Source: an uncultured Campylobacterales bacterium
GTDB taxonomy: Bacteria > Campylobacterota > Campylobacteria > Campylobacterales > CAZCQG01
Direction: 5' to 3'
DNA length: 64,000 bases
NCBI GenBank assembly: GCA_964500775.1
Contig: CAZCQG010000006.1
Location: 5,584 to 69,583 of the forward strand
Part shown: positions 17,254 through 47,075 of the stretch, piece by piece
How positions within the stretch are numbered: position 1 is the stretch's first letter
Layout of the letters: every line of letters starts with the position of its first letter
Notes under the pieces: model-generated
Databases searched by the model: none
The model's input: only the letters and a program-made list of their open reading frames with translations
What the model was told of the DNA's origin: nothing
Program-made: the position numbers and the translations under genes

Positions 17254-17319
17254 TAGTAGTCAAAAAAAATAGAAAATAGACGATTTAGTTCTATACAAGT
17301 TAATTTTGGGAGCACGACA

Positions 17320-18876: not shown

Positions 18877-18886
18877 TTTTCTAAAT

Positions 18887-19582: not shown

Positions 19583-19617
19583 AAAAAGGTATAGCGCTCC
19601 TTATCACGATATTTTTT

Positions 19618-23142: not shown

Positions 23143-23176
23143 AATTCCTTTAACTGGAATGTATTTTGCTTAATAT

Positions 23177-23201
23177 GCCTTGAAAACCCATATTTCAAGG
23201 C
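23177..23201 (+). promoter_or_regulatory. perfect 9-bp hairpin between gspC and gspD that includes the gspD Shine-Dalgarno
   Basis: GCCTTGAAA (23177-23185) pairs with TTTCAAGGC (23193-23201) around a 7-nt loop. The AAGG at 23197-23200 lies 6 nt before the gspD ATG (23207) and is in the 3' arm. Confidence 0.4.
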
Positions 23202-23206
23202 TTTGA

Positions 23207-25063: not shown

Positions 25064-25064
25064 T

Positions 25065-26582
25065 ATGTTAAAAATCGAGAGTATCCACGACGTAAGTTTA
25101 GAACCCGTAGAGATAGAGGGGATCGACTTAAATATCGCCCTCAAAAACTATGTTCTTTTTACAAAGTTCGAGGGGAAAACCATCGTTGCCCTCTCCGAAG
25201 AATACCTCACGCAAAGCTTGGATTATATTTCCAAACAAAATTTCAACTACAAAATAAAATTTCTTGATGAAGAATCTTTTGAGCGTCTCTACAATAAATT
25301 TCTAGAGATTCGCACCGATAGAGAGATAGAAAACTTTGAGAGCACCCCTGAAGAGAGCGTAGACGAAGACCTCTCGCTTACCGAATTTTTGCGCAATAGT
25401 GCAGATATTTTAACAAGCGAAGAATCAGCACCCATCATAAAATTCGTAAACTCGTTATTCTATCAAGCGATCAAAAAAAGGGCGAGCGACATCCACGTAG
25501 AGATGCACGAACACAAAGGGGAGGTGCGATTCCGAGTGGACGGCGTACTTATCAAACACGTCGATCTCGACCTCAAAATCACCGCCCTCATTATCTCTAG
25601 GATAAAGGTCATCTCCAACCTCGACATCAGCGAAAAGAGAGTCCCCCAAGACGGCAGGACGCAGGTAAAGATCGCAGGGAAAAAACTTGACATCAGGGTC
25701 TCTGACCTCCCGACGTATTACGGAGAGCGGATTGTTATGAGGATTTTGATGCAGAGTGAGGACATCCCGCATCTCGAAGAACTAGGCTTTAAAAGCGCGA
25801 TGACTAAAGAGTTTGAAAACTTGCTCAAATATAGCCACGGCATCATCCTAGTCACCGGTCCTACGGGGAGCGGGAAATCAACCACGCTCCACTCGTTTCT
25901 CCAAAAGCTCTCCACGCCCGACAAAAACATCATTACCGTCGAAGATCCCGTGGAGTACAAAGCCGATAATATCAATCAGATTCAAGTCAACGCCAAAGTA
26001 GGGTTAACCTTTGCCGCGGGTTTGCGCTCTATTCTTCGTCAAGACCCGGACGTCATTATGGTGGGGGAGATCAGGGATGCCGAAACGGCAAAAATAGCTA
26101 CGCAAGCTGCGCTGACCGGACACTTGGTCCTCTCTACGCTCCACACCAATAATGCCACATCGACTATCGCAAGACTCGTGGATATGGGAGTAGAGCCGTA
26201 TTTGCTCTCTTCCGTTCTAATAGGGGCTTTGGCACAGCGACTGGTGCGTAAACTTTGTCCCCACTGCAAAGAAGAGGACAAGGTCGCCGAAAATTATGCA
26301 CAAGAGTTTAACCTCCCTCAAGGTGCAAAAATCTACAATGCAAAAGGGTGTAGACAATGCAACTATACCGGATACAACGGCAGAGTCGCTGTAGGGGAGT
26401 TGTTTTTGATGAATGATGCGATAAAAAAAGCAATCAAAGATACCACCAACGACCAAATCATCAGGGAATACGCCAAGAAAAAAGGGCTCAAGACCCTCTC
26501 CGATCAGCTCAAAGAGGAGTTGCTAGCAGGCAACACTTCATTAGAAGAGGCGATCAGAGTCGGTTTAAAAGATGATGCGTAA
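25065..26582 (+). CDS. gspE: type II secretion system ATPase GspE
   Basis: 505 aa. Walker A GPTGSGKST, Asp box, Walker B (DPDVIMVGEIRD), His box (TGHLVLSTLHTN) and a tetracysteine motif CPHC...CRQC. Confidence 0.9.
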   Translation: MLKIESIHDVSLEPVEIEGIDLNIALKNYVLFTKFEGKTIVALSEEYLTQSLDYISKQNFNYKIKFLDEESFERLYNKFLEIRTDREIENFESTPEESVDEDLSLTEFLRNSADILTSEESAPIIKFVNSLFYQAIKKRASDIHVEMHEHKGEVRFRVDGVLIKHVDLDLKITALIISRIKVISNLDISEKRVPQDGRTQVKIAGKKLDIRVSDLPTYYGERIVMRILMQSEDIPHLEELGFKSAMTKEFENLLKYSHGIILVTGPTGSGKSTTLHSFLQKLSTPDKNIITVEDPVEYKADNINQIQVNAKVGLTFAAGLRSILRQDPDVIMVGEIRDAETAKIATQAALTGHLVLSTLHTNNATSTIARLVDMGVEPYLLSSVLIGALAQRLVRKLCPHCKEEDKVAENYAQEFNLPQGAKIYNAKGCRQCNYTGYNGRVAVGELFLMNDAIKKAIKDTTNDQIIREYAKKKGLKTLSDQLKEELLAGNTSLEEAIRVGLKDDA

Positions 26583-26994
26583 CGCCTTTAGCTTAGTAGA
26601 AGTAGTCATTGCCGTTACCATCATCTCTATGCTCTCGGTCGCGATTCTCCAAGTCTCGCAAAACTCTATCGCTTATACGCAAGATTCTAAAGAGAGATTC
26701 CGAGATACCGTATTGCTTACCCTTGATGTTCGAGAGAATCTAAACAAGAACAAACAAGACGAGTTGTTTATTGATACCCTCCTCGAAGAAAAATACGCTA
26801 TACCCGAGAAAGAGCTGCAATTTTTCAAAGATAAAAAAATAGCCTACAAACTAGAATCCGACGAGGAGCTAAAATTCATACTTCTTGATAAAGAGAGCGG
26901 TATGCCTCCCATCGACTTGCCTCGCCTAGCAAAGGTGACGCTTCGTGACGCAAAACATGGGTCGTTTATCTATATTCTACGAGATGCGCATTGA
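26572..26994 (+). CDS. minor pseudopilin (GspH/I-like)
   Basis: 140 aa. MMRNA|FSLVEVVIAVTIISMLSVAIL is a prepilin-type N-terminus with E+5. Overlaps gspE by 11 nt. Confidence 0.7.
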   Translation: MMRNAFSLVEVVIAVTIISMLSVAILQVSQNSIAYTQDSKERFRDTVLLTLDVRENLNKNKQDELFIDTLLEEKYAIPEKELQFFKDKKIAYKLESDEELKFILLDKESGMPPIDLPRLAKVTLRDAKHGSFIYILRDAH

Positions 26995-27497
26995 AAAAAG
27001 GTTTTACGCTAGTAGAGATAATAGTCGCGATTACTATTTTTAGCATCGCTACACTGTTGATGTACAGGGTCACCGAATCGCTTAGGGTGGCAAACGGCAA
27101 CCTCAAAAGACATTCAGAAATCGCAAAAAACGATAACCTGCTACTAGAAAATTTTAAACTCGATTTTCTCTACTCCGATGAGGGAAATGTTACATACAAA
27201 AAGGGTGAGCGCTTTGATGCTATAATGTTTACCTCAAGACATTCACTATACGGGATTTCTCGACCTTATATCGAATACCACGTATCGAAAAATAAAAAAC
27301 TTTGGAGAGTGGAATCGAGCATAGATCACAATCTGACTATAGAAGACGAACACTTTATGTATGTAAAATTTGATGCCATAGCCCGAGATGTCGAGAGGTT
27401 TAAAGTGTACGAAGCAAACGGGAGTAAGCTAGTATATATACAAAGCGCCGGCAAAGAGCCGCTCTTTTTCGAGCTAGCTCATCCGAGCGCTATATAA
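26991..27497 (+). CDS. minor pseudopilin (GspJ-like)
   Basis: 168 aa, TTG start. MKKG|FTLVEIIVAITIFSIATLL is a canonical G|FTLxE prepilin motif. Confidence 0.7.
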   Translation: MKKGFTLVEIIVAITIFSIATLLMYRVTESLRVANGNLKRHSEIAKNDNLLLENFKLDFLYSDEGNVTYKKGERFDAIMFTSRHSLYGISRPYIEYHVSKNKKLWRVESSIDHNLTIEDEHFMYVKFDAIARDVERFKVYEANGSKLVYIQSAGKEPLFFELAHPSAI

Positions 27498-33653: not shown

Positions 33654-35504
33654 ATGCAAGAGATATTATTGATACTCCTTTTCGGTCCTTTTATGAGTGC
33701 GGCATTTTACTCGCTACTGCCTCGTGAAAGCGGTAATTTAACCATCATTGCCGCGGTAGCGGTTTTTTCATTGTCGGCTCTGTATCTGCATACGAGTCTA
33801 GAATCGCCGCTATTTTTATCACTCCATCTCCATGGGTTGATTTTGACGGTGGATTACCTATTGCTCGGATACTTCTTGTATGAAGGGATAAAAAACCGCT
33901 CAAAAGAGATTATTCTACTCTCGCTCGTTCAATTGGCACTTTTTACCTATTTTGTTTTTACGGCAAAAGAAAGCGAAACGCCGCAGATTTACTTGGATTC
34001 CCTTGCGACTATGATGCTACTGCTCATCAACATCGTCGGCGGAGCGATTTTGGTGTATGCGCTAGATTATATGAGAGACGAGACTACCGTCCTCAAGAAA
34101 GAGAAACAATTTGTAGCGTTGCTTTTATGTTTTTTAGGGGTGATGAACTTTGCGGTCGTGAGCAACAATATCGAGTGGTTCTTCCTGTTTTTTGAGCTTA
34201 CCACGCTATTTTCATTTTTACTTATCGGATTCCGAAAAGACGAAGTTTCTATACAAAATGCTCTAAAAGCATTATGGATGAATCAAATCGGCGGCGTATT
34301 TATTCTCGCAGCCCTCATATACCTAGCGACAAATAATTTCGACATAACCTTTAGTGCGCTCCTCGCTTCGCACGATAACGTCTACTTCATCCTCCCCGTT
34401 GCACTCTTGTCTTTGGCGGTGATGATAAAAGGGGCAATGTTCCCTTTTGATCGATGGCTACTTGGTGCGATGGTAGCGCCCACACCCGTCTCGGCGATAC
34501 TCCACTCCGCTACGATGGTGAAAATCGCCCCCTATATGATACTACGCCTCTCAGAATCCATAGCCGCTAGCGGTGTCGGGATTCTTATCACCCTTTTTGG
34601 CGCGATCGTGTTTTTCGGGGCGAGCTTTATCGCGCTCGGAAAAGAGAATCTCAAAGAGATACTCGCCTATTCGACCATTGCGATGCTCTCCCTAGCTATG
34701 GCACTCGGAGCGACGGGCAATAGCGATGCGCAATTTGCGGCACTAATGATCATCATCTTCCACGGTATCAGCAAAGCGATACTCTTTATGTGTGCGGGGA
34801 TTTTCGAGAAAAAATACCACGCCAAAACACTTACCCAAATACAAGAGCTCTTGTACGAAGCCCCTTTTTTGGTCATCGTAACGACTATTGGATTCCTATC
34901 TATCACCATCCCGCCGATGGGGGCATTTTTGGGAAAAATGTTTGCCATCGAAGCTTTGAGTCACATAGGAGCATTTGGGGTCGTCACACTCTCTTCTACG
35001 ATGCTGATAGTTTTCGGAAGCGTGGCACTAAGCGTCCTCTATTTTCGGGTGATAGGATCAATGGTGCAAAAAGAGGGGGCGAAAACAAGCTATACCGTCG
35101 ATTTGATGCGACCGTGGTATAAGTATTCGCTCGTCGCTCTTTTGACGATACTTACGATAACGTCGATGGGGTGTTTTATAATGTTTAAATTTTTATTTTT
35201 GGATGCCTTGGTAGGAATCTCGCATGAAGCATATAGCTTTACATGGACGTGGGCGGGGATGCGATTTGGCGAAATAGAGCTAAAAGCATACTACCTCATC
35301 GCGGGATTTCTCTTTTTACTCTCTCCGATACTCGCACTCACCCACAGGATCAAAAACAGAGACAGAGCACTTGAATACAGCTGCGGGGAGCGATTTGACT
35401 TTAAATTCAATATGTTCAAAATACACTTTTTTGATGCAAATAAAAAATACTTCGATATTATCGGGATCATTGGATTCTTATCTATTCTAGTTTGGAGTGT
35501 GTGA
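33654..35504 (+). CDS. echA: Ech-type hydrogenase membrane subunit (NuoL/HyfB-like antiporter-type subunit)
   Basis: 616 aa, polytopic. Proton-conducting-membrane-transporter pattern (WLLGAMVAPTPVSAILHSATMVKIAPY). First gene of the six-gene group 4 hydrogenase cluster. Confidence 0.75.
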   Translation: MQEILLILLFGPFMSAAFYSLLPRESGNLTIIAAVAVFSLSALYLHTSLESPLFLSLHLHGLILTVDYLLLGYFLYEGIKNRSKEIILLSLVQLALFTYFVFTAKESETPQIYLDSLATMMLLLINIVGGAILVYALDYMRDETTVLKKEKQFVALLLCFLGVMNFAVVSNNIEWFFLFFELTTLFSFLLIGFRKDEVSIQNALKALWMNQIGGVFILAALIYLATNNFDITFSALLASHDNVYFILPVALLSLAVMIKGAMFPFDRWLLGAMVAPTPVSAILHSATMVKIAPYMILRLSESIAASGVGILITLFGAIVFFGASFIALGKENLKEILAYSTIAMLSLAMALGATGNSDAQFAALMIIIFHGISKAILFMCAGIFEKKYHAKTLTQIQELLYEAPFLVIVTTIGFLSITIPPMGAFLGKMFAIEALSHIGAFGVVTLSSTMLIVFGSVALSVLYFRVIGSMVQKEGAKTSYTVDLMRPWYKYSLVALLTILTITSMGCFIMFKFLFLDALVGISHEAYSFTWTWAGMRFGEIELKAYYLIAGFLFLLSPILALTHRIKNRDRALEYSCGERFDFKFNMFKIHFFDANKKYFDIIGIIGFLSILVWSV

Positions 35505-36348
35505 AATGTCTGAAAGCTTTTTCTTTAATTTTTTGATCGCGCTCCTTATCCCCTTCATCGGAGCTTTCATCTACGGAATCGAACGCGTCGTGAAAGCGAG
35601 GATGCAAAATAGAATCGGACCGCCCGTATTACAGCCTTTTTACGATCTTTTCAAGCTCGCACAAAAAAGGGCGCTTATTATCCACTCATTCCATTCAAAT
35701 ATGGGAATCCTCCATTTTTTCGCAACGTGGTTTAGCACCGCGCTACTGTTTTTGGGGGAAGATATACTCATTGTGATTTTTTTCCATTTACTCGCGACCT
35801 CTTTGTTGCTTTTAGGATCTTATAGCGTAAAAAGCCAGTATTCGCAGATAGGCTCCCATAGAGAGCTTATTATGCTCTTTGGATACGAACCTATTTTTAT
35901 TCTACTCGGCATCACCCTTTTTAGTCTCGGAGATTCGTTTGCGATTTCCGATATGCAATTCGACGGTATGCCGCTACTAAGTGCTCCTTTGGCATTTTTG
36001 GCATTTTTGGTAGCTGCGCTTATGAAGCTCAAAAAATCCCCTTTCGATGCCGCCGAAGCGCACCAAGAACTTCTCGGCGGAGCGGAGATAGAGTACAGCG
36101 GCATCTATTACGAAGCGCTTTACGGAGCGAAAATGAACGAGTATGTCTACATCTACGGTTTTTGTTTTTTACTCGCGGGGAAAGAGCTACTAGCAGGTTT
36201 TATCCTATGCGCGATACTTTTTTTACTCATCAATCTCATAGATAATGCAACAGCGAGGCTCAAAACGGGTGATGCGCTTAAGATCGCTTTGGCGGTCGGG
36301 TTTATCGCACCGTTTCTCAATCTCGCACTTCTCTATTTAGGGGTGTAA
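35497..36348 (+). CDS. echB: Ech-type hydrogenase membrane subunit (NuoH/HycD-like)
   Basis: 283 aa, polytopic. RKV.ARMQ.R.GPP and PFD..EAE.EL..G...EYSG motifs. Overlaps echA by 8 nt. Confidence 0.75.
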   Translation: MCEMSESFFFNFLIALLIPFIGAFIYGIERVVKARMQNRIGPPVLQPFYDLFKLAQKRALIIHSFHSNMGILHFFATWFSTALLFLGEDILIVIFFHLLATSLLLLGSYSVKSQYSQIGSHRELIMLFGYEPIFILLGITLFSLGDSFAISDMQFDGMPLLSAPLAFLAFLVAALMKLKKSPFDAAEAHQELLGGAEIEYSGIYYEALYGAKMNEYVYIYGFCFLLAGKELLAGFILCAILFLLINLIDNATARLKTGDALKIALAVGFIAPFLNLALLYLGV

Positions 36349-36882
36349 ATGGAACTATTTGCAAACTCAAAGAAAAAATCACCGTGGATCATCCACTACA
36401 ACGCAGGAAGTTGCAACGGATGCGACATAGAGATACTCGCGACGCTCTCGCCAAAATATGACGTGGAGCGATTTGGCATCATCAACAAAGGGAATCCCAA
36501 GCAAGCCGACATACTCCTAGTCACCGGTCCCGTGACCAAGCGCTCGCGTGAACGTCTCGTGCAGCTCTACACCCAGATACCCGAACCAAAAGTGGTCATC
36601 TCGGTAGGTGCATGCACCAATAGCGGCGGGGTCTTCCGCGATATGTACAACCAAGAGTGCGGCGTAGATAGGTACATCCCCGTGGACGTCTACGTCGCAG
36701 GGTGCGCGGCGAGACCGGAGCAAGTAATCGAAGGGGTAGCTAAAGCACTAGAGATATTAGAACAAAAAACCGACGCGATAGAAAAACCCAAAAAGCTTTT
36801 CGGAAAGATAAATGAACTTTTCGGGCAAAACGACAGACGTGAGATAGCAAAAACACTAAAGGCGGATGATGCAGAAAATTGA
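36349..36882 (+). CDS. echC: Ech-type hydrogenase small subunit (NuoB-like, [4Fe-4S])
   Basis: 177 aa. GSCNGCDIE, GACTNSGG and VAGCAARPE cysteine motifs. Confidence 0.85.
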   Translation: MELFANSKKKSPWIIHYNAGSCNGCDIEILATLSPKYDVERFGIINKGNPKQADILLVTGPVTKRSRERLVQLYTQIPEPKVVISVGACTNSGGVFRDMYNQECGVDRYIPVDVYVAGCAARPEQVIEGVAKALEILEQKTDAIEKPKKLFGKINELFGQNDRREIAKTLKADDAEN

Positions 36883-37207
36883 GACTACTTTGCAAAACGT
36901 AGTAAACGACATTAAAAAATTCTATGACTACAAAAAACATTTTTACAGCATGGTAAACGGCGTAGATAGGTGTGAGGGGTTTGAGATACAGTGGCTTTTC
37001 GGCGAGTATCACGGCGAGGAAATCACTATGTTCGTAGCGAATTGCGGCTATGAAGACGAAGTACCCAGCCTCGCTTCTTTCATCCCCTCGTCGGTCTATT
37101 CGGAAAATGAACTCTTTGACCTCATGGGGGTGAAATTCCACGGTGCAAAAAGAGGATTATTCATCGAAAAAGATACCAAAGAATTCCCCTTAAGGTGCGC
37201 ACAATGA
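36866..37207 (+). CDS. echD: Ech-type hydrogenase subunit (NuoC/HycE-N-like)
   Basis: 113 aa. Sits between the small and large subunits. SVYSENELFDLMGVKFHG resembles the NuoC-family ERE..D..G motif. Confidence 0.6.
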   Translation: MMQKIETTLQNVVNDIKKFYDYKKHFYSMVNGVDRCEGFEIQWLFGEYHGEEITMFVANCGYEDEVPSLASFIPSSVYSENELFDLMGVKFHGAKRGLFIEKDTKEFPLRCAQ

Positions 37208-38289
37208 TCCAAGAACTCAACATCGCCCTCGGCTCGCAACACGTCGCCCTATTGGAGCCTATGCGGCTAGAATTCCAGACCGAAAACGAAAGAATCACGG
37301 GGGTAAACGCCGACTTCGGATACGTCCATAGAGGCATCGAAAAAGCGTGCGCTAGCAAGTTTAAATTCAAACAAGTGGGCTATGTCGTCTCTAGGGTATG
37401 CGGTCTGTGCTCCATCACTCACAGCTCGGCGTATACGTTTGCCATCGAAGGAATCTTCGGCGAAGAGATTCCTATACGGGCAAAGTATCTACGGATACTC
37501 GCACTAGAGCTAGATAGAATCCACTCTCATCTCTTATGTCTCGCCCACACCGCAGAATCGGCAGGCTTTGAAGCGCTTTTTATGCACATAATGAAACACC
37601 GTGAACTCGTAATGGAAGCCCAAGAATCGCTCACCGGCAACCGTGTCCACTTCGACTACCTCCATATCGGCGGGGTAAATAGAGACTTGGACAGCGAAAA
37701 AAGCGGGGAAATAAAAAACAAGATCATCCAACTAAGAGAGAAGGTCAAAGAGATACAAGAGTTATTCAACTCCAACTTCTCTCTCTCGATGAAATACAAA
37801 GGAATCGGCGCTATAAGTACCGAAGATGTCTACAAACTCAACGTCGCAGGTCCGCAGGCAAGAGCGGCAAACGTAGCGTGGGACGTCCGCAACGTCGATA
37901 CGACACTCCCCTATAAAGAGGTGGGTTTCAAACTCATCACCCAAGAAGGGGGTGACATCCACGCAAGAAACAACGTGCGCCTATTAGAGACGCTAAACTC
38001 CATCGAAATGGTATTAAACGTCTTAGACAATTTGCCTGCGGGGGAGATTACCGTAAAAATAAAAGGGAATCCGGATGGAGAATATGTCTCTAGAATCGAA
38101 GCCCCGAGAGGCGAGCTCTCCTACTATGTGCTCGGTGAGAAAAAGCCGATACTTAAAAGGGTGCGGATAAAAACACCGACCTACTCCAATGCGGCAAGTT
38201 TCGTGCATATAATGAACGGGCAAGACTACGGCGATATTCCTGCCATCATGGCATCGTTTGATCCGTGTATGTCGTGTACGGCAAAGTAG
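37195..38289 (+). CDS. echE: Ech-type [NiFe]-hydrogenase large subunit
   Basis: 364 aa. N-terminal RVCGLCSITHS (L1 CxxC) and C-terminal DPCMSCTAK* (L2 CxxC), with no C-terminal extension after the motif. Confidence 0.9.
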   Translation: MRTMIQELNIALGSQHVALLEPMRLEFQTENERITGVNADFGYVHRGIEKACASKFKFKQVGYVVSRVCGLCSITHSSAYTFAIEGIFGEEIPIRAKYLRILALELDRIHSHLLCLAHTAESAGFEALFMHIMKHRELVMEAQESLTGNRVHFDYLHIGGVNRDLDSEKSGEIKNKIIQLREKVKEIQELFNSNFSLSMKYKGIGAISTEDVYKLNVAGPQARAANVAWDVRNVDTTLPYKEVGFKLITQEGGDIHARNNVRLLETLNSIEMVLNVLDNLPAGEITVKIKGNPDGEYVSRIEAPRGELSYYVLGEKKPILKRVRIKTPTYSNAASFVHIMNGQDYGDIPAIMASFDPCMSCTAK

Positions 38290-38299
38290 GAGAGATGCG

Positions 38300-38713
38300 A
38301 TGTTAAAAGCGATGCTATTATCCCTATCCAATCTTTTTAAAAAGCCGGTCACGAAGCGCTACCCTTTTGAACCCACTTATAAACCTGCGGATTTCAGAGG
38401 GGAGATAAAATATAACGTGGAGGAATGTATCTTTTGCCTCAAATGTGAGAGCGCTTGCCCTCCGGGAGCCATTATTTTTGATCAGCACGTCAAAAGCGGC
38501 GTGTATAAGTACCATTACAATCCTTACCTTTGCATCTACTGCGGCGAATGCGTGCGCGCATGTCCGAAACCCGGATGCGATGGATCGCTTTGGCAAGATA
38601 GCACCGAAACTCTAAGCTCCACCGACAAGACAATCAACGATGAATGGTTTGCCTTAGAACAAAGAGCTTATAAAAACAGAGAGACTTATAAAACAAATAA
38701 AAAAACACAATAA
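38300..38713 (+). CDS. echF: Ech-type hydrogenase 2x[4Fe-4S] ferredoxin subunit (NuoI/HycF-like)
   Basis: Start moved to the ATG at 38300 (TAGGAGAG SD upstream). Contains CIFCLKCESACP and CIYCGECVRACP. The track start at 38258 would overlap echE. Confidence 0.8.
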   Translation: MLKAMLLSLSNLFKKPVTKRYPFEPTYKPADFRGEIKYNVEECIFCLKCESACPPGAIIFDQHVKSGVYKYHYNPYLCIYCGECVRACPKPGCDGSLWQDSTETLSSTDKTINDEWFALEQRAYKNRETYKTNKKTQ

Positions 38714-38715: not shown

Positions 38716-38739
38716 CCACGTATTGTGGCTTATTTTTTG
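38716..38739 (+). terminator. weak hairpin plus T-tract after echF
   Basis: CCACG-TAT-TGTGG (one G:U pair) followed by CTTATTTTTTG. The stem is short, so support is weak. Confidence 0.3.
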
Positions 38740-38796
38740 CTTGATTATTAATATTACTTAATGTAAATTGGGAAAAAATATTAATAAGAGGTTTTT

Positions 38797-40284
38797 TTGG
38801 ATAGTAGCAACAAGGTTGAATATGTTTTTTTAGATCCGCAAAAATGTGACCTATTAAGCTTGTCAAGCGTAGGGCTCGTAAAAGCAGAGCTAAAAAATCC
38901 CAAAAAAAACTGCAAAATCATCTCTACGTTAGATAGCTCAAGAATCTTAAATCTCTCCATAGAAATAGACAAAGATACTCCCGAAGACCTCATAGGGGAT
39001 GCCATAAACGAGGCGGTATACGAAGATGCCTCTATCGATCCCGAAATAGAATACATACAAAAACATATCAAAAAAGGGAGAAATTACGACGGTTCGAAAA
39101 TCGAATACGACGTATTTTTGATCAATAAAAACGAAATCTACGGCAGTTTCTCCGAGTGTGCAAAAACATATCCGTATATCGACTACGTCATTCCCGAGAT
39201 TTTCCTTTTTAGATCACTTTATGAATACGGAGAGTTAAAAAAAGAAGGGTATGATATTTTTGTACATTTTGGAGAAAAAAGTGCATTTTTGACCCTGTAT
39301 CAAAAGGGAAATTTGATTTTTCACAAGACTTTCGATCTCAATCTCGATTCATTAAAAAACGTATTTAATGAGTATAGTCCCGCCGTTGTCACTCCCGAAG
39401 AATTTAAAAATATCTTTTCGGGAAATCTAAGCGAATCGATATATGAAGGGGCGCTCAACAAGCTTAATAATGAAATATTTATTGTGCTTGATGAAGTGAT
39501 GTCCTATATCAAACGAATGTACAGTTTTAGCGTCGTAGAGAATTTTTTTCTTGATTCCGCCTACGGCATCAACGAAAAATTGTATCTATATCTCGAAGAA
39601 CTTCTTGGCTATAAAGCAAAAAGATTTGAATTTAACTCCGAAAACACGAGACATATAGAGCAAATCGCCTTAAAAGCACTCGCCCACGAACTCCCGTGTC
39701 TCAACGAATCAAACTTTACGGTCTATGCTAGACCAAAGCCTTTCTTTAGCCGTCCGGTCGGAAAAACCGCACTCTACCTAATCATTGCCGCCGTACTTTC
39801 ATTACTCTACGGGGTTTTTATCGGAGTGATGTATTATATGACAAGCGAGAGCATTAAAACCCTCACGCTTGATAAAAACAAAATAGCGCTTCAAGCACAA
39901 AATATTCAAAATACGATAAATACTTTTAAAGCAGAAGCCCAAAGCGCTACGACAAAGGAAAATGAAGCCAAAGCGGAACTCCAAAGCTCTCTCAATATAC
40001 TTGAAGAGGTGCGAAAAGTAAAAGAGGGTTACAAACAAAAAACCCCGATGATTATTTACCTCTCAAAAGAGATCACGCGAACAGGGACGAATCTTCAAAC
40101 ACTGCAAATCGAAGATACGGGAGAAAAAACAAAAATAACCGCCGGCATTACCGCCACTAACGACAAGTCACTTTCCACGCTTATCGATACCTTAGGAAGA
40201 AACACTCAATATACATTGGAAATCGATACTATAACGCGAGGAGAGAACGACTACAACACCACTTTGAGGTTAATACGCCGATGA
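38797..40284 (+). CDS. MshI-like (fused PilM/PilN-type) pilus assembly protein
   Basis: 495 aa, TTG start. A ~330-aa cytoplasmic part, a single TM helix (ALYLIIAAVLSLLYGVFIGVMYY), and a coiled-coil periplasmic tail. First gene of an operon whose order matches mshIJKL(M)NEG. Confidence 0.5.
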   Translation: MDSSNKVEYVFLDPQKCDLLSLSSVGLVKAELKNPKKNCKIISTLDSSRILNLSIEIDKDTPEDLIGDAINEAVYEDASIDPEIEYIQKHIKKGRNYDGSKIEYDVFLINKNEIYGSFSECAKTYPYIDYVIPEIFLFRSLYEYGELKKEGYDIFVHFGEKSAFLTLYQKGNLIFHKTFDLNLDSLKNVFNEYSPAVVTPEEFKNIFSGNLSESIYEGALNKLNNEIFIVLDEVMSYIKRMYSFSVVENFFLDSAYGINEKLYLYLEELLGYKAKRFEFNSENTRHIEQIALKALAHELPCLNESNFTVYARPKPFFSRPVGKTALYLIIAAVLSLLYGVFIGVMYYMTSESIKTLTLDKNKIALQAQNIQNTINTFKAEAQSATTKENEAKAELQSSLNILEEVRKVKEGYKQKTPMIIYLSKEITRTGTNLQTLQIEDTGEKTKITAGITATNDKSLSTLIDTLGRNTQYTLEIDTITRGENDYNTTLRLIRR

Positions 40285-40913
40285 AACTGCAATTTAATTT
40301 ACAAAGGATACTCGATTCTTACGACAATTATCTGAATGATAAAAAAGAATCCGAAAAAGCGATTCTTATCTATTCACCCGCCGTACTCATCGTATTTTTA
40401 GCATATTTTTACCTATTTCCGATCGTAGATAGCTACTACACGAAAATAAAAAAACAACATAATGCTCTGCAAACAGAGATGCAGAATCTCAACAATATTA
40501 TCCTCACTCAATCTAGCGGCGACATCTTGGCGAAGCTCAAAAAAGATGCCGATGACGCGAAGGCAAATACCGAAATCATTTGGCAGCAAAAAAGTTTGAT
40601 AGAGGAGAAGATCTACGATCTTAGCCTCAACCAAGAGAAGTGGCATACCCTCCTTGATCAAATTACCAAAGAAGGGGATGCGTTAGGGATAAAATTAGAT
40701 ACGTTCACGTTTAAAGACAACAACGTCGTCTCCAATAATATCAAATCAACTATCATTACCGTAGAAGGGGATGGAAACTATAAGAACATCCTTCTCTTTT
40801 TGAATTTTTTAGAGAGTAAAAGCGGCTACGTCAACCTCAAAAACATTCAAATGCAAGGAGGGGGTGAGATTGTATTTAAAGTCGAAATAGAGGTGTGGAG
40901 GATGGATGTTTAA
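40281..40913 (+). CDS. MshJ/PilO-like bitopic membrane protein
   Basis: 210 aa. TM helix at residues ~28-50, coiled coil, then a C-terminal alpha/beta region. ATGA overlap with the upstream gene. Confidence 0.4.
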   Translation: MKLQFNLQRILDSYDNYLNDKKESEKAILIYSPAVLIVFLAYFYLFPIVDSYYTKIKKQHNALQTEMQNLNNIILTQSSGDILAKLKKDADDAKANTEIIWQQKSLIEEKIYDLSLNQEKWHTLLDQITKEGDALGIKLDTFTFKDNNVVSNNIKSTIITVEGDGNYKNILLFLNFLESKSGYVNLKNIQMQGGGEIVFKVEIEVWRMDV

Positions 40914-41331
40914 GTTGCTCCTCCTAACCTTTTTTACGCTCAATCTCTTTGCCAACGAACCCGTGATTTCACCGCAAATGCAAAAGATTTTTGAATTACT
41001 ATTGCAAGACGGTCGTATCGACTTAAAAGATGAGATACTCTCACTCCAAAACCCCTATCCGAAAATCCAAGAAGCGCCCGCAGAATCATCAACGGAAACA
41101 GACTCCTCGACTCCGCCGCAAAAAAAAGAAGAAAAACTCACGATGATACTCGACGGAGCGGCAAAAATCGGTGCGACATGGTATAAAGTGGGGGATGAAT
41201 ATAACGGGCAAAAAATCGTAGAGATAACAGATAATAAAGTGATATTGCAAAAGTTGGATTCCACCGAAGAGATGCTTTTGATAGAAAAAAATATAAATCT
41301 AGAGGTAAAAACAAATGAAACACGTAACTAG
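40906..41331 (+). CDS. MshK/PilP-like small periplasmic protein
   Basis: 141 aa. Signal peptide MFKLLLLTFFTLNLFA, a Pro/Glu/Ser linker, and a C-terminal ATWYKVGDEYNGQKIVEITDNKVILQK beta-domain pattern. Confidence 0.35.
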   Translation: MFKLLLLTFFTLNLFANEPVISPQMQKIFELLLQDGRIDLKDEILSLQNPYPKIQEAPAESSTETDSSTPPQKKEEKLTMILDGAAKIGATWYKVGDEYNGQKIVEITDNKVILQKLDSTEEMLLIEKNINLEVKTNETRN

Positions 41332-42805
41332 AGCGATTGTAGCGATTTTATTACTATCTGCAGCATTGTTTGCGGAGTGCGAGAATCGACTCTTCACCAT
41401 TTCCGCCAATAATAAAGGGGCGAGTGCGGAAGATATTATCAATCGTCTCTCGGAAGAGTGTCAATTCAGCGTCGTCGTAAAAGACGGCAATAATTCAGAA
41501 ACGATACTCAAAAAACCGCTTCAAAACGTTTTTCTCAAAGATGCCACAATCGAGGAGGTATTTCAACTCGTCCTCGGAGAAAACGGACTTGAATACGAGT
41601 ACGACAACCAAAAATTAAAAATCCATTACCTCATCACCAAAACATTCGAAGTGGACATACTCAATACCAGCAGAACAGGAACAAGCTCTACGAATATCGC
41701 GATAACGGGTGAGCGGGTGAGCGGCGAATCGACGACGACCAATTCCGATTCCGGAGGAAATTCAAAAGCAGAGATTAAATCGGATGACGGCTATAGCTTT
41801 TGGAGCGACACTTTAGTACAAGAGCTTTCCGATATTGCGACGCGCCCCGAGGATGAATTTAGCGATGTCAAAATCGTCATCAATAAAGGGGCCGGTCTTA
41901 TCACCGTTACAGGAAACAAAAAGCAAGTCGCAAGGGTGGATGAATACCTCAAAAGTATTAACACGAGGCTAAAAACGCAGGTGCTTATCGACGTAAATAT
42001 CTTAAGCGTGAAACACACGAACTCAAAGTCAATCGGAATTGATTGGAGCAGTATAATGGATAGCGTAAACGTCTTAACCGCCACCCAAGATTATTCATTT
42101 ACAAAAACAAAAGAGATTACCGGAATAACAGACGATACGAAGACCTATACGAAAAACCTATCGCTAGGGACGTTAAGCAACCTACCGATGAGCGACATAG
42201 TAAACTTCTTGCGCGGATACGGCGATGTCACCACCGTATCAAATCCAAAAGTAATGACGCTCAATAATCAACCCTCGCTTATCAGTGTGGGAAATATATT
42301 CTACTACGAAGAGACCGACGTCACTACAACTTCCGGCACGAGCACTACGAACGTAGCTACCGATGTAACGTATACTCCGCTTTTCGTCGGAATCTTGCTC
42401 GATATTACCCCCTCTATCTACAATGACGAAATAATGCTCAAAATAAATCCCTCCATCACAAAAACTACCAATAGCAACATAGATACGGGGACTGCTTTTA
42501 CTTCGGGACCTCCGAATCTAGAATCGAAACAATTAAGCTCGGTAGTCAAACTCAAAGACGGCGAAAGAGCGGTGCTGGGAGGACTTATCTCTAGGGATAG
42601 GCAAAACGACGAGAAAAAAGTCCCCTTGCTCGGAGACATCCCGCTTGTGGGATACGCCTTTAAACGCGAAGAACTCTATGATCAACTCTCCGAAATGGTT
42701 ATAATTATAACGCCGCACGTTGTAGGAAATAAGGAGCTCTCTTTGAGGGATTTGGGATACACGAAAGAAAAAATTGAAAGCGCTATGGATTACTACGAAG
42801 AATGA
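41315..42805 (+). CDS. type IV pilus secretin (MshL/PilQ family)
   Basis: 496 aa with a signal peptide. N-terminal short domain (FLKDATIEEVFQLVLGENGLEYEYDNQKLKI) and a secretin core ending VPLLGDIPLVGYAFKREELYDQLSEMVIIITPHVV. Confidence 0.85.
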   Translation: MKHVTRAIVAILLLSAALFAECENRLFTISANNKGASAEDIINRLSEECQFSVVVKDGNNSETILKKPLQNVFLKDATIEEVFQLVLGENGLEYEYDNQKLKIHYLITKTFEVDILNTSRTGTSSTNIAITGERVSGESTTTNSDSGGNSKAEIKSDDGYSFWSDTLVQELSDIATRPEDEFSDVKIVINKGAGLITVTGNKKQVARVDEYLKSINTRLKTQVLIDVNILSVKHTNSKSIGIDWSSIMDSVNVLTATQDYSFTKTKEITGITDDTKTYTKNLSLGTLSNLPMSDIVNFLRGYGDVTTVSNPKVMTLNNQPSLISVGNIFYYEETDVTTTSGTSTTNVATDVTYTPLFVGILLDITPSIYNDEIMLKINPSITKTTNSNIDTGTAFTSGPPNLESKQLSSVVKLKDGERAVLGGLISRDRQNDEKKVPLLGDIPLVGYAFKREELYDQLSEMVIIITPHVVGNKELSLRDLGYTKEKIESAMDYYEE

Positions 42806-43632
42806 GCAGATATTTAGAACTTGAAAAAAAATGGGTGCGATATAAAATAAAGAGGCTCGCCATAGTATTCATCCCTATAGTTTTACTCTTATTTATGGGG
42901 GGAGCGATGGCGTATTATTACGACTTCTCAAAACAGAGCAAAGCATCCCGTCCCGCCGCCCTCCAAATAGTACCGAACGAAAATCAAAATATTGCGGCTG
43001 TTTCCGTCGAAAAGCCGATGGAAAAGGTCACGCAAAAACCAAAGTGCTATACCGTCACCGTAGATGTTCTTAATATCCGCAAAGAACCTTCTCTCTCTTC
43101 GGAGAAACTCGGAAGACTCTTTGGAGGCGAGGAGTTTTGCAGCGATATAAATGAGGAGAATTGGATAAAAATCGATGAAGGGTGGATTTACGCAAAGGGG
43201 ACGCTCTCTCTAGTCAAAGATGAGCAAATCAACGAGAAACAAGTATATATCCAGGACCTCTTACAAATCCAAAATAGTGAGCCGCCGCAAGAAAACCAAG
43301 GTGCGGAAATAGAAATAAAAACAAAAAGTGCCGACAAAAATCAAATACTCAAAAAAATGATTGAGAGTTTCAACTCTTCTCCCGATGCAAAATTGGCAAT
43401 TGATATAGGAAAAAGGTATTATGAAGATAAAAAATACCGTGAAGCGCAATATTGGGCATTGAGATCCAATGAGCTTGACAATGGAGATGCGAGTTGGATT
43501 CTCTTCGCTAAAGCAAAATTTGGCGCGGGAGAGAAGGATGAAGCGATTACTATATTAACGACGGCATCCCAAAAAACCAAGAACAAAGAGTTTGATCGAC
43601 TTCTTAACGAAATGCGGGCAAATAGAGAATAG
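42802..43632 (+). CDS. membrane-anchored SH3b + TPR-like protein (MshN-slot)
   Basis: 276 aa. TM helix (LAIVFIPIVLLLFMGGAMAYYY), SH3b-like segment (YTVTVDVLNIRKEPSLSSEKLGRLFGGEEF...NWIKIDEGWIYAKG), and C-terminal TPR-like helices. Confidence 0.55.
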   Translation: MSRYLELEKKWVRYKIKRLAIVFIPIVLLLFMGGAMAYYYDFSKQSKASRPAALQIVPNENQNIAAVSVEKPMEKVTQKPKCYTVTVDVLNIRKEPSLSSEKLGRLFGGEEFCSDINEENWIKIDEGWIYAKGTLSLVKDEQINEKQVYIQDLLQIQNSEPPQENQGAEIEIKTKSADKNQILKKMIESFNSSPDAKLAIDIGKRYYEDKKYREAQYWALRSNELDNGDASWILFAKAKFGAGEKDEAITILTTASQKTKNKEFDRLLNEMRANRE

Positions 43633-43642
43633 CAGGATTATT

Positions 43643-45394
43643 ATGAGAATAGGCGATAGATTAATACAAGCGGGACTAATAGACGAGGCGCAATTAAACC
43701 TCGCACTTGAGGAGCAAAGAAGACTACGAGAAGAAAAAAGGAGAAAAAAAATCGTCAGGGTCTTGGTTGATCTTGGACTCTTAAAAGAGGCGAATCTCCT
43801 TAGTTTTTTTGTAGAGCAGTGCAAGAGCGGATTTCTCAATCTTGATTCTATCGTTGAAGATTTTCCCGCGAGCGAAGACACCATCTTAGAAGCTACGGCT
43901 TCGTTGATGGATATGGAGTACGTCGACTTCTACGGCATAAAGATAGATCAAAACGTCGTAGATTACATACCCTTCGTCCATATTAAAAAATTCTATGCGT
44001 TTCCCTACAAGGAAGATGAGCAATTTATCTATATCGCGCTTATTGATCCTTTTAATCCCATACTTAAAGAGACGTTTCAAAGGGCGATAAAAAAGAAACC
44101 CCTTAGATACACCCTTGTAAAAAAAGAGCAGTTTGTCAGAATCTTGGACAAACTTGAGATAAACGACGGCGTTAAAGATCTCATCACTAAGATAAGAAGA
44201 GAGATACGCGGAGGGAGCCTGAATGACGGCGGAGAATCTTCTATTTCAAAGCTCATCGACGTAATCTTTGAAACCGCCATTAAAAATAAAGCGAGTGATG
44301 TCCATATAGAATCCAACGACAACGAATGTGTCATACGCTGCAGAGTAGATGGGATACTATACGAATACTTTGACTTAGACAAAGATATGTTCGCACCGCT
44401 AAGCTCAAGGATAAAACTCATCTCCGAACTAGATATTGCCGAAAAAAGAAAGCCCCAAGACGGCAGATTTTCGCAGGTTTTTTTAGGAAGAGAGTTTGAT
44501 TTTAGGGTCTCTACGCTTCCTATCGTCACGGGCGAATCGATCGTCGCGAGGATTCTTGATAAGTCAAAAGTGTTAATGAAACTCGAAGATCTCGGAATGA
44601 GCGAAAAAAACTTTGAAAGAATCAATAAAACCATCAAATCGCCTTACGGAATCATCTTCGTAACCGGACCTACGGGAAGCGGTAAAACCACTACATTGTA
44701 CGCCGCACTCAATGCTATAAAAAGCGTAGGAGAAAAAATAATCACCGTCGAAGATCCGGTCGAATACCAGATGGAAGACGTCCACCAAGTGATGGTAAAC
44801 GAAAAAGCCGGACTTACTTTTTCTGCCGCACTTCGCTCCATTCTTAGACAAGATCCCGACAAAATAATGGTCGGTGAGATTCGTGACCAAGAAACGTTGC
44901 GTATCGCCATCCAAGCCGCACTCACCGGACACTTGGTAATCTCGACGTTGCACACCAACGATGCACTAAGCGGAATCACGAGACTTATGGATATGGGAGT
45001 GGAGAGCTTTTTCGTCGGATCGGCGATGGCGGGGATAGAAGCGCAAAGACTTGTGAGAAAACTCTGCCCTCACTGTAAATACGAGTCGGAACTTCCGCAA
45101 AATATTTTAGACGAATTGCTATCGTACCTTCCCGATGACTACAGATTCTACCGAAGTCACGGCTGCGAAAAATGCAATATGACCGGCTATCTCGGTAGAG
45201 AACTTATCTCTGAAGTCGTCATAGGGAGCGAGAGGCTTAGAAAGCTTATCATCGAAGGGGCATCTAAAGAGATTCTCCTAGAAGAGGCAAGAAAAGACGG
45301 TTTTGTTACGATGTTTGAAGACGGTCTTGCAAAAGCATTGCAAGGATTAACAAGCATAGAAGAGATTTACAGAGTCGCTAAACTGCCGTCATGA
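43643..45394 (+). CDS. mshE: type IV pilus extension ATPase, MshE-like with N-terminal MshEN (c-di-GMP-binding) motif
   Basis: Start moved to the ATG at 43643 (AGGA 6 nt upstream, after the stop of the previous gene). N-terminus MRIGDRLIQAGLIDEAQLNLALEEQ... Walker A GPTGSGKTT, DPDKIMVGEIRD, TGHLVISTLHTN, and CPHC...CEKC. Confidence 0.85.
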   Translation: MRIGDRLIQAGLIDEAQLNLALEEQRRLREEKRRKKIVRVLVDLGLLKEANLLSFFVEQCKSGFLNLDSIVEDFPASEDTILEATASLMDMEYVDFYGIKIDQNVVDYIPFVHIKKFYAFPYKEDEQFIYIALIDPFNPILKETFQRAIKKKPLRYTLVKKEQFVRILDKLEINDGVKDLITKIRREIRGGSLNDGGESSISKLIDVIFETAIKNKASDVHIESNDNECVIRCRVDGILYEYFDLDKDMFAPLSSRIKLISELDIAEKRKPQDGRFSQVFLGREFDFRVSTLPIVTGESIVARILDKSKVLMKLEDLGMSEKNFERINKTIKSPYGIIFVTGPTGSGKTTTLYAALNAIKSVGEKIITVEDPVEYQMEDVHQVMVNEKAGLTFSAALRSILRQDPDKIMVGEIRDQETLRIAIQAALTGHLVISTLHTNDALSGITRLMDMGVESFFVGSAMAGIEAQRLVRKLCPHCKYESELPQNILDELLSYLPDDYRFYRSHGCEKCNMTGYLGRELISEVVIGSERLRKLIIEGASKEILLEEARKDGFVTMFEDGLAKALQGLTSIEEIYRVAKLPS

Positions 45395-46641
45395 GATACT
45401 TCAGGGTCACCGTAGTCGACAAGGGTAAGAAAAAATTCATAGACGTAAAAGCCACAAATAAAAACGCCGCAAAAGATTTGGCAATCGCCGAAAACAAGGG
45501 TGGTAAAGCACTTCTGGTCAAAGAAATCCAAGAGCCCCTCGGAGAAAAAATCATCAATACGCTAAAAGCTCTTCGCGCCGGGATACAAGGAAGCGAAAAG
45601 GTCAAGGTAGATGAGCTTATTCCCGTATTTAAACAAATGAGTCTGATGACGGGAGCGGGTATATCTATTCACCAAAGCATGCAAGAGATTATCGATTTTA
45701 CCGAGAATAAGATGATAAAGACCATCTTCACCGAAGCGCTCGTAGGAATCAATAGCGGCAAAACACTAAGCAATGCCTTTAAACCCTATCAAGAGCAACT
45801 CGGTAATCTCTCGATGTCGATGATAGAGCTCGGAGAACAAACAGGAAATCTCTCCGATTCCCTAGGAATGCTCTCGGTTACCCTAGCAGAGATTCGAGAC
45901 AATATCGCCAAGTTCAAAAAAGCGTTACGCTACCCCTTATTTACTATCGGGGCGATGGTGATCGCTTTTGTTTTGTTGATTTTACTCGTCGTGCCGAAGT
46001 TTAAAAAAATATTTGAGGGTTTGGGTGCGGATTTGCCGCTTCCTACGATTATCTTACTAAAAATTGAGTACCTTTTTACAAATTTCGGACATCTCCTTTT
46101 TGTGATGCTTTTAGGTTCTATTTTTACGGTGAGGTACCTCTATAAAAACAATAAAAAGTTCCATTTTTGGTTTGATAGTGCTATCCTCAAAGTAAAACTT
46201 TTAGGCGATGTTATCTATCTCTATTCAATGAATCAATATATGATTACCCTCTCACAGATGCTTAAAGCCGGTATCCCGCTTGAAGAAGCGCTGCGCTCCT
46301 CATCAAATATGGTGAACAATATCTATCTCAAAAGGCTTTTTAATTCTATCACCGACCTCATCAGAAAAGGTGCATCACTCACAAGCTCTATGCAGGAGAC
46401 CAAACTTTTTGAGCGAAGCTCTTTACAGATGGTAAGTGCAGGAGAACAAAGCGGGAATCTCGACGAGATGCTAGGGGTAGCGGGGAATTACTACAAGATG
46501 AAATACGACAATATAGTGGATAATCTCTCTTCTTATATAGAGCCTCTTATTACGGCTTTTATCGCATGTATGGTTTTACTATTGGCGCTTGGGATATTTA
46601 TGCCGATGTGGGATCTAGCGGGCGCGGCAAGAGGACATTGA
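45391..46641 (+). CDS. type IV pilus platform protein (MshG/PilC/GspF family)
   Basis: 416 aa. Two T2SSF repeats, three TM segments, and a C-terminal EPLITAFIACMVLLLALGIFMPMWDL tail. Confidence 0.85.
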   Translation: MRYFRVTVVDKGKKKFIDVKATNKNAAKDLAIAENKGGKALLVKEIQEPLGEKIINTLKALRAGIQGSEKVKVDELIPVFKQMSLMTGAGISIHQSMQEIIDFTENKMIKTIFTEALVGINSGKTLSNAFKPYQEQLGNLSMSMIELGEQTGNLSDSLGMLSVTLAEIRDNIAKFKKALRYPLFTIGAMVIAFVLLILLVVPKFKKIFEGLGADLPLPTIILLKIEYLFTNFGHLLFVMLLGSIFTVRYLYKNNKKFHFWFDSAILKVKLLGDVIYLYSMNQYMITLSQMLKAGIPLEEALRSSSNMVNNIYLKRLFNSITDLIRKGASLTSSMQETKLFERSSLQMVSAGEQSGNLDEMLGVAGNYYKMKYDNIVDNLSSYIEPLITAFIACMVLLLALGIFMPMWDLAGAARGH

Positions 46642-46655: not shown

Positions 46656-47075
46656 TTATTGACACTCTTTGCACACGCCTATAATCGCTACCGAACAATC
46701 CTCTACCTGAAAACCGTTTTTTTCTTGCATCTCTTTGGCTAAGCACGTCGTATCAAACTCCATATCTACCAAACTACCGCATTTGGTGCAGTAAAGATGG
46801 ATATGAGGATGGATATGCAACTCGTATTTTTGCTTATGATTAGGCACTTTTATCTCTTTTAAAATATCGGCTTCGACCATACTAGAAATATTTTTATACA
46901 CCGTAGCCAATGAAATCGAAGGATATACCGCTCTTATCTCCTCGTATAACTCCTCAATATTCAAATGTCCCGCCGCTTTAATTTTGTCCAAAATAACAAC
47001 CCTCTGTGGGGTAATTTTTAACTTTTTATCTCTTAATATTTCATCATAATTCATTTCGCTCGACCTTACTTGCAT
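46656..47075 (-). CDS. Fur-family metalloregulator (Fur/PerR/Zur type)
   Basis: 139 aa. Winged-helix segment (LKITPQRVVILDKI...ISLATVYKNI), an HxHxH-like tract (HIHPHIHLYC), and paired CxxC motifs (CTKC...CKEC). Confidence 0.8.
   Translation of the reverse strand: MQVRSSEMNYDEILRDKKLKITPQRVVILDKIKAAGHLNIEELYEEIRAVYPSISLATVYKNISSMVEADILKEIKVPNHKQKYELHIHPHIHLYCTKCGSLVDMEFDTTCLAKEMQEKNGFQVEDCSVAIIGVCKECQ

Follow-up and report, generated by a model that had tools for sequence, protein, structure and literature searches.

What kind of machine is encoded by a set of type IV filament genes that includes neither a pilin nor the AAA+ protein MshM, in a stretch of DNA that also carries a type II secretion system (T2SS)? 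This question arises from seven genes at positions 38797–46641 of a 64-kb stretch from an uncultured Campylobacterales bacterium (GenBank assembly GCA_964500775.1, contig CAZCQG010000006.1, positions 5,584 to 69,583), which we call the window and whose numbering is used throughout. An initial annotation had read these genes as a mannose-sensitive haemagglutinin (MSHA)-like type IV pilus assembly operon without MshM and without pilins, and that reading was borne out on every point examined. The operon very probably encodes the full assembly ('secretory') apparatus that spans the envelope for a type IV pilus of the MSHA type (MSH clade), in a Wolinella-related member of the Campylobacterota. What proved less secure is the view that its missing genes set it apart.

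All seven open reading frames (ORFs) are intact and lie on the plus strand, at the coordinates and in the mshIJKL(M)NEG order first assigned to them, with one correction only, to the start of the ATPase gene. They encode a 495-residue MshI-like protein (from a TTG start, 38797–40284), a 210-residue MshJ-like or PilO-like protein (40281–40913), a 141-residue MshK-like protein (40906–41331), a 496-residue MshL-type secretin (41315–42805), a 276-residue protein in the MshN position with transmembrane, SH3b and TPR segments (42802–43632), an MshE-type ATPase (43592 or 43643 to 45394; 600 or 583 residues) and a 416-residue MshG-type platform protein (45391–46641). Overlaps of 4 nucleotides (I/J), 8 (J/K), 17 (K/L), 4 (L/N) and 4 (E/G) indicate translational coupling. 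For the ATPase the most likely start is the ATG at 43643 (MRIGDRL...), 10 nucleotides after the preceding stop codon, rather than the TTG at 43592, because the Wolinella ortholog aligns from there and the cyclic di-GMP (c-di-GMP) motif then lies at the extreme N-terminus and scores above its cutoff. A scan of the 5′ flank found a terminator-like hairpin, CCACGTATTGTGG (38716–38728, plus strand), continued by a T-run to 38738 directly after the upstream NuoI-like gene, and the ribosome-binding site AAGAGG (38786–38791, plus strand) stands 5′ of the MshI-like TTG, so the seven-gene cluster is read as a separate transcription unit. At its 3′ end the operon stops, as had been noted, against a convergent gene: 14 nucleotides separate it from the stop codon of a minus-strand Fur/PerR-family regulator (46656–47075; Pfam FUR, 89.8 bits), a conserved neighbour outside the machine. 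An Rfam scan gave no match close to the operon, neither a c-di-GMP riboswitch nor any other element. The gene order is collinear with orthologs in dozens of genomes, including Wolinella, Sulfurimonas and Sulfuricurvum, and the arrangement is therefore not due to chance.

The secretin gives the clearest assignment. It scores 256.5 bits with the NCBIfam model TIGR02519 (pilus_MshL), above the equivalog cutoff of 250.2, fails the GspD (137 bits, cutoff 351) and PilQ (114.6 bits, cutoff 284) models, and stays far below what the type IVb PilN and YscC models require; in Pfam it matches Secretin and Secretin_N_2. The nearest relatives share 68% and about 50% of residues with it, and proteins of Wolinella, Sulfurimonas and Sulfuricurvum come next. 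The ATPase matches Pfam T2SSE (443 bits) together with MshEN, and it is here that a rival reading finds some footing, in which the operon would be a second T2SS using the window's GspG and minor pseudopilins for protein secretion: secretin, ATPase and platform families are common to T2SSs and type IV pili, and GspE gives the ATPase its highest raw NCBIfam score (511 bits). That score is nonetheless below the equivalog cutoff of 630, as the PilB score is below its own (490 bits, cutoff 676), and the platform, a polytopic inner-membrane protein matching T2SSF twice, reaches 209 bits with a GspF model whose cutoff is 424, so that the GspD, GspE and GspF cutoffs are all missed widely whereas that of MshL is passed. 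Placement with Tad systems, which the initial annotation had named as grounds for giving up the MSHA assignment, is contradicted by the TadA-family model (61 bits, cutoff 373), and CpaF structures match the ATPase at no better than E ~1e-11, against 1e-117 for PilF and PilB.

An external reference separates the paralogs in the same way. The Aeromonas caviae chromosome NZ_AP026896.1 (L087 in our numbering, in which each L-number denotes an individual relative or reference locus and L002 is Wolinella) has a canonical MSHA locus at about 338,000–353,000, with the order I, I1, J, K, L, M, N, E, G, F and then pilins, and its secretin and ATPase relatives each occupy three paralogous places, belonging to its MSHA, T2SS and type IVa pilus sets. 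The window secretin has its best place at MshL and the window ATPase at MshE, not at ExeD or ExeE, and Aeromonas MshG scores 193 bits with the window platform against 118 bits with the window's own GspF-like protein. In the reverse direction, hidden Markov models (HMMs) of the Campylobacterota families (about 60–85 sequences) score 534 bits on Aeromonas MshE, 304 on MshG and 244 on MshL, and they reach MshM at E 1e-10 and MshK at E 1.5e-6. The replicon is filed as a plasmid in PLSDB ('plasmid pKAM479_3', 4.94 Mb) and is evidently the chromosome.

The T2SS of the window is complete and separate, split between 9852–27497 and 63229–63657. It consists of GspF (9852–11069, minus strand) with a pseudopilin adjacent, a PDZ-type GspC with GspD and GspE (22330–26582), two minor pseudopilins, probable GspK/L/M/N-like ORFs that match no family (19618–22355), and a GspG (63229–63657, minus strand) that lies 36 kb away and passes its equivalog model (146.7 bits against 88.85). 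The two machines are related through the type IV filament superfamily, in that their secretins, ATPases and platforms are paralogous, and the GspL-like overall architecture of the MshI-like protein could be counted in favour of a second T2SS, as could a locus without pilins while four pseudopilin genes stand elsewhere in the window. The T2SS is unlike the MSH-type set, however, in its PDZ-type GspC, its GspG equivalog and its lack of a c-di-GMP module, and its ATPase, platform and secretin are only 48%, 23% and 24% identical to the Wolinella MSH-type proteins, compared with 68%, 55% and 38% for those of the operon. Moreover, GspC, D, E, F and G with three minor pseudopilins suffice for one T2SS only; MshK homology is seen in the operon itself and MshM homology at the family level; and relatives carry dedicated pilin genes, accompanied in Wolinella by PilT-like genes, which T2SSs lack. 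The second-T2SS reading is already largely refuted, and we consider it very unlikely. The distinct paralog sets, next to a complete T2SS, instead bear out a second type IV filament machine as first proposed.

The remaining proteins fit an MSH-type alignment apparatus, in differing degrees. Word-indexed searches with the 495-residue MshI-like protein, alone or as a 21-sequence profile, recovered only the query, and neither Pfam nor a family profile run against PDB sequences gave a match; an exhaustive search of representatives defines a family of 176, nearly all of about 500 residues. An AlphaFold2 model from a 74-sequence alignment has a predicted local distance difference test (pLDDT) score of 91.9. 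In it, residues ~1–305 form a cytoplasmic actin-fold domain of the PilM type, for which Foldseek ranks the PilM proteins of P. aeruginosa, Thermus and Myxococcus (5eoy, 2ych, 3jc8_Ma; E ~1e-13) highest in the PDB, with FtsA and MreB behind them; residues ~320–411 form a transmembrane and coiled-coil helix, and residues 416–494 a periplasmic ferredoxin-like domain of the PilN/GspL type. Modelled alone (pLDDT 95.3), the C-terminal part consists of a long helix and, after it, an alpha-beta-beta-alpha-beta-beta domain whose top match is the periplasmic domain of PulL/GspL (5HL8; template modelling score 0.82, root-mean-square deviation 1.7 Å), with XcpY, EpsL, PilO and EpsM/GspM as further matches. 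In structure the protein is thus a PilM-PilN fusion with a GspL-like overall architecture, in agreement with the PilM/N-fusion reading it had been given. The PilM, PilN and PilO folds are common property of the superfamily and do not by themselves point to a type IVa pilus.

The 210-residue protein is bitopic in the inner membrane and matches Pfam PilO at 18 bits, and its PilO-like reading gains from its family, 16 of whose 21 members match PilO (best E 9.6e-8) and three T2SSM. The small periplasmic protein had been recognised as such, and its 141 residues combine a signal peptide with a PilP/GspC-HR-like character and homology to Aeromonas MshK (family HMM E 1.5e-6; HHalign 95% probability; BLAST E 2e-5), with a weak GspC_delta match at residues 90–129. 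The 276-residue protein has the transmembrane, SH3b and TPR composition first proposed for it, with an N-terminal transmembrane helix, an SH3b domain at residues ~80–139 (Pfam SH3_3, 24.2 bits) and C-terminal repeats at ~186–268 (ANAPC3/TPR, 25.8 bits); the profile of its family matches TPR structures at E 5e-21, with TPR found in 20 of 21 members, and TPR content and gene position are as for MshN. The MshI, J and K accessory genes precede mshL, as in the MSH order.

Read from the ATG at 43643, the ATPase scores 42 bits with NF053729, the c-di-GMP-binding MshE-related domain (cutoff 38), and its N-terminus aligns at E 3e-7 to the c-di-GMP-binding domain of V. cholerae MshE (5HTL). Motif I, RIGDRLIQAGLIDEAQLNLALEEQ, is canonical and the Walker motifs are intact. 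The MshEN and c-di-GMP modules, with MshE as the best Aeromonas match, sustain the designation MshE-like. When the window N-terminus (43643–44032) was aligned with those of 26 other loci, the NCBIfam c-di-GMP domain was matched by 13 of the 27, and a canonical RxGDxLI..GLI motif I occurred only in the window, Wolinella, L006, L007 and L033; the Sulfurimonas/Sulfuricurvum-type N-termini (MDRITxDLL...) look degenerate, without a canonical RxGD. The alignments suggest that c-di-GMP control of the MSH-type pilus may differ between Campylobacterota lineages.

Several observations weigh against an MSHA-type assignment and have to be set beside the scores. Family HMMs and HHalign comparisons of I, J and N with the single Aeromonas MshI, MshI1, MshJ and MshN sequences gave no significant match (HHalign P 0.009 for the I C-terminus against MshI1, 0.03 for J, and 0.07 for N, again with a single-sequence target), so that homology of these three to MshI, MshJ and MshN is not demonstrable at the sequence level; they are too diverged, and their assignment therefore rests on fold, domain content and position. 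Motif II of the ATPase is atypical, with KIV for the V. cholerae RLG and a spacer five residues longer, a deviation that tempers what is otherwise a plausible prediction of c-di-GMP binding. The 64 kb hold no pilin, prepilin peptidase, PilT or MshM, and function thus depends on loci outside the window; for MshM, tblastn with two Campylobacterota proteins gave no match at E<0.01. Finally, the MSH model of TXSScan (Denise et al. 2019) lists mshA and mshM among its mandatory genes, and such systems usually occupy a single locus that includes the pilins. The operon carries mshL, mshE and mshG of the mandatory set, without mshM and without pilins at the locus. The same model needs three of five mandatory genes and allows mshA to be a 'loner', and MSH loci typically lack a prepilin peptidase (Denise et al. 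2019).

Is the operon, then, a decaying remnant, a non-functional pilus locus from which the pilins and MshM have disappeared? The genes that TXSScan regards as mandatory are indeed missing, and the pilin operon that adjoins the Wolinella locus has in the window given way to a hydrogenase-like cluster. To the contrary, all seven ORFs are intact and translationally coupled, the predicted folds are of high confidence, the Walker and c-di-GMP motifs are preserved, and the architecture without MshM is kept at 25–86% amino-acid identity across Wolinella, L006, L007 and Helicobacter. Decay on this evidence is very unlikely, and the comparison with other loci of the phylum points the same way, as follows.

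We tabulated 84 Campylobacterota loci, the window not among them, of which 74 were informative and 10 were truncated and so uninformative. An AAA+ MshM gene follows the secretin gene in 60 of the 74, nearly all of which also have, between N and E, a gene for a protein of about 180 residues with a signal peptide, which we call X (for example L003:11576–12385 for M and L003:13133–13675 for X, with about 50 other loci alike). X never occurs without M, and M occurs without X in two loci (L033 and L066). Both are absent from the remaining 14, namely Wolinella, L006, L007, several Helicobacter/Helicobacteraceae loci and a separate group of Campylobacterales metagenome-assembled genomes (MAGs), and the window operon has this same architecture. 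In a neighbour-joining tree of the ATPases, loci without M are scattered over at least two and probably three distinct positions, and repeated loss of MshM is the simplest reading because Aeromonas has the gene. The absence of MshM, correctly noticed at first and then taken as something that stands out, thus recurs across the phylum, and the tree and the locus comparison argue that the lack of MshM and X reflects streamlining that recurs at the level of lineages, and that it is no defect. X matches nothing in Pfam or the PDB, and a candidate interpretation of M and X as a GspA/GspB-like pair for secretin assembly is unsupported.

The SH3b domain of the MshN-position protein (43030–43220, residues ~76–139) has a distribution of its own, occurring also in the N proteins of L002, L006, L007, L009, L022, L033, L037 and L086. 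Each of the eight M/X-less loci scored in the window/Wolinella/Helicobacter clade has it, as does L033 (M present, X absent); of the 50 scored loci with both M and X, none does. The third M/X-less group also lacks it, and the idea that SH3b in MshN compensates for loss of M and X was rejected as a general rule; it is a clade trait. L033, with SH3b and M and without X, is the only intermediate architecture.

The absence of downstream pilins was likewise noticed correctly and likewise proves ordinary. None of the 84 loci has pilins downstream of the platform gene, and unlinked pilins are therefore the norm in the phylum, a further argument against decay. Pilin-like genes occur upstream only in some Wolinella/Helicobacter-type loci and are directly adjacent in two. 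In Wolinella a divergent operon immediately upstream encodes five proteins with class III signals and two PilT-like ATPases, the latter suggesting a retractile fibre, and the Helicobacteraceae MAG locus L086 has a similar divergent pilin arrangement. The corresponding position in the window is occupied by the hydrogenase-like cluster, and the whole 64 kb contains only four ORFs with class III signals, all of them T2SS-associated pseudopilins (GspG and three minor ones). Because Wolinella and L086 keep such genes adjacent and the window has the hydrogenase-like cluster in their place, the genome probably has its dedicated operon for pilins and retraction at another site, parted from the one for assembly. 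Two sources had been offered for the filament subunit: a gene elsewhere, which the dedicated pilins of Wolinella and L086 make probable, and sharing of the T2SS pseudopilins, which is unlikely given that GspG is a true T2SS equivalog.

The assembly mechanism, its activation by c-di-GMP and the biological role of the window pilus are set out here as we infer them from these assignments. An alignment complex of inner membrane and periplasm would be built from three proteins, namely the PilM-PilN fusion (MshI-like), MshJ (PilO-like) and MshK (PilP-like), and it would couple both the MshG platform and the MshE hexamer of the cytoplasm to the outer-membrane secretin MshL. The transmembrane, SH3b and TPR protein probably helps secretin assembly or anchors the secretin to peptidoglycan. 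Activation by c-di-GMP through the N-terminus of MshE is established for the V. cholerae protein, and in the window pilus binding of c-di-GMP at the MshEN module would license pilin polymerisation driven by MshE and hence extension. Pilins, prepilin peptidase and any PilT-type retraction ATPase would be supplied from outside the window. The pilus is probably c-di-GMP-controlled and used for surface attachment, DNA capture or both.

Which of these two roles applies bears on the relation to Cts, the competence system of Campylobacter. In C. jejuni the published, consecutive locus tags are ctsD (a secretin of 472 residues), ctsP (an NTPase of 202), ctsX (195) and ctsE (519). Their order and sizes parallel L, M (269 residues), X (about 180 residues) and E of the majority Campylobacterota architecture, and MshL and MshM both appear among the genes that Rapid Annotation using Subsystem Technology (RAST) names in C. 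ureolyticus. Among the best-ranked matches in the plasmid collection, no relative came from a Campylobacter record, and the genome scan described below yielded nearer relatives only. Cts and the window machine have in common a secretin, ATPase and platform core and unlinked pilin-like genes (ctsG, ctsT and Cj0683 in C. jejuni); the window lacks genes of the CtsP and CtsX type, which by gene order and size are the presumed counterparts of M and X. It is possible, if somewhat doubtful, that the window operon is the counterpart of Cts, building a short competence pseudopilus for DNA uptake and not an adhesive pilus, an idea compatible with MSH-type ancestry. The two occur in one phylum, the PilT-like genes beside the Wolinella operon imply a retractile fibre, and a machine without M and X could still support DNA uptake because transformable A. 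butzleri has neither ctsP nor ctsX. Set against these parallels, genes of the I, J, K and N types are all four present in the window operon and none is among the published cts locus tags; an MshE gated by c-di-GMP is better known from attachment pili, as generally understood from V. cholerae MSHA; and there is no comEC or dprA context in the window.

Grouping with Cts had been posed as a reason to discard the MSHA assignment. The opposition is probably a false one, for Cts, in which the L-M-(N)-X-E order and the patchy occurrence of M and X seem mirrored, has the look of a reduced descendant of one ancestral MSH-type operon. The MSH-type machine probably connects to the poorly understood Cts system. 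A fuller scheme can be drawn in which the Campylobacterota MSH-type operon was ancestral to Cts (CtsD corresponding to L, CtsP to M, CtsX to X, CtsE to E and CtsF to G) and was streamlined stepwise in the window/Wolinella/Helicobacter clade; in that second part a peptidoglycan-binding SH3b may have been grafted onto the MshN-position TPR protein, after which X and then MshM became dispensable, with L033 as the intermediate. As a joint proposal it is speculative, and we consider it unlikely as it stands. If such an origin of Cts were true, natural transformation in Wolinella-like, Sulfurimonas-like and enterohepatic Helicobacter lineages would be the task of this operon's pilus, and if the link were confirmed, genetically tractable Wolinella could be used to study attachment and DNA uptake and the enigmatic roles of CtsP and CtsX.

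The MSHA-type assignment of the operon itself finds its context in close and distant relatives. In a scan of one genome per species we confirmed at least 574 relatives in the Campylobacterota, and the best 80 belong essentially all to this phylum (a few MAG titles are mislabelled), with genera that include Sulfuricurvum, Sulfurimonas, Sulfurovum, Hydrogenimonas, Nitratifractor, Sulfurospirillum and enterohepatic Helicobacter. The Prokaryotic Genome Annotation Pipeline (PGAP) already names the secretin of Wolinella, Sulfurimonas and Sulfuricurvum 'pilus (MSHA type) biogenesis protein MshL', and MSH systems have been reported in Epsilonproteobacteria (Denise et al. 2019); the statement that this type of machine is not normally discussed for the phylum was thus too strong. 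Our literature search nevertheless found no paper on an MSH-type system in Wolinella, Sulfurimonas or Sulfurovum. Within an MSH-type pilus family that extends across the phylum, is annotated already and is experimentally unstudied, the window operon is a fairly ordinary member. It adds little new by itself, and its value is mainly that of a map to a type IV pilus machine that is experimentally uncharacterised in Wolinella, Sulfurimonas and environmental lineages and that comes in two architectures, with or without MshM and X. The interest that remains attaches to the proposed Cts link, to the dispensability of the MshM and X pair, and to a machine on which there is no experimental work outside Campylobacter.

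Comparison with the MSHA loci of Gammaproteobacteria (V. cholerae mshHIJKLMNEGF-BACDOPQ and the Aeromonas MSHA/Bfp locus) shows the I-J-K-L-(M)-N-E-G order, an MshL-type secretin, an MshK homolog, an MshE with its MshEN module, an MshG platform and a locus without prepilin peptidase in common. The window differs in having no MshM, no MshF and no adjacent pilin operon (mshBACD onward), in a single PilM-PilN fusion where Aeromonas MshI is two genes, and in an N protein of 276 residues with an SH3b insert against 394 residues in Aeromonas. The majority of Campylobacterota (Sulfurimonas, Sulfuricurvum, Sulfurovum, Hydrogenimonas) have I-J-K-L-M-N-X-E-G, to which the seven window genes are collinear, and likewise no downstream pilins; unlike the window they carry an AAA+ MshM of 269 residues and the X protein of about 180, N proteins without SH3b, and an MshE without the canonical RxGD motif I.

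The closest correspondence is with Wolinella succinogenes DSM 1740 (BX571656.1, ~527,790–536,539), which has an identical seven-gene architecture without MshM or X, the canonical MshE N-terminal motif and an SH3b-TPR protein. Downstream synteny is also conserved, with Fur, ffh, rpsP, KH, rimM, trmD, rplS, a hexapeptide transferase and arginine decarboxylase in both, and Fur followed by ffh-rpsP-KH-rimM-trmD-rplS in L006 as well. The difference lies upstream, where Wolinella keeps its divergent pilin/PilT operon and the window has the co-directional hydrogenase-like cluster. Ffh is 74% identical to that of Wolinella and 86% to that of the metagenomic relative L006, and such housekeeping identities place the window organism close to Wolinella and outside it. 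The Wolinella MshL is longer (731 residues; L002:10001–12196), with a duplicated N-terminal STN/Secretin_N_2 region to which the window N-terminal region aligns twice. In L006 (JGI Ga0181610_109175), the closest relative, the MshJ/MshK-like genes are inverted relative to mshL at the contig end (21–834) and the MshK-like ORF is truncated; loss of mshIJK there is only apparent, the inversion at the contig end probably being an assembly artefact.

The cluster that lies directly upstream of the pilus operon is a co-directional, six-gene module (33654–38713) resembling group-4 [NiFe]-hydrogenases and complex I, with Proton_antipo_M, NADHdh, Oxidored_q6, Complex1_30kDa and Complex1_49kDa domains, the last with a NiFeSe_Hases match, and a 2x[4Fe-4S] subunit. 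Between the T2SS halves stand very large Ser/Thr/Asn-rich secreted proteins or lipoproteins at 11645–15241 (1198 residues), 15367–17004 (545 residues, with internal repeats) and 17320–18876 (518 residues), and these proteins of the 11645–18876 region could be T2SS cargo or adhesins. After gspG, on the minus strand, come genes for a Pom-family outer-membrane protein (62254–63177) and a CHASE4-PAS-GGDEF-EAL protein (59731–62250), the latter a c-di-GMP turnover enzyme in the same window as an MshE with a predicted c-di-GMP module.

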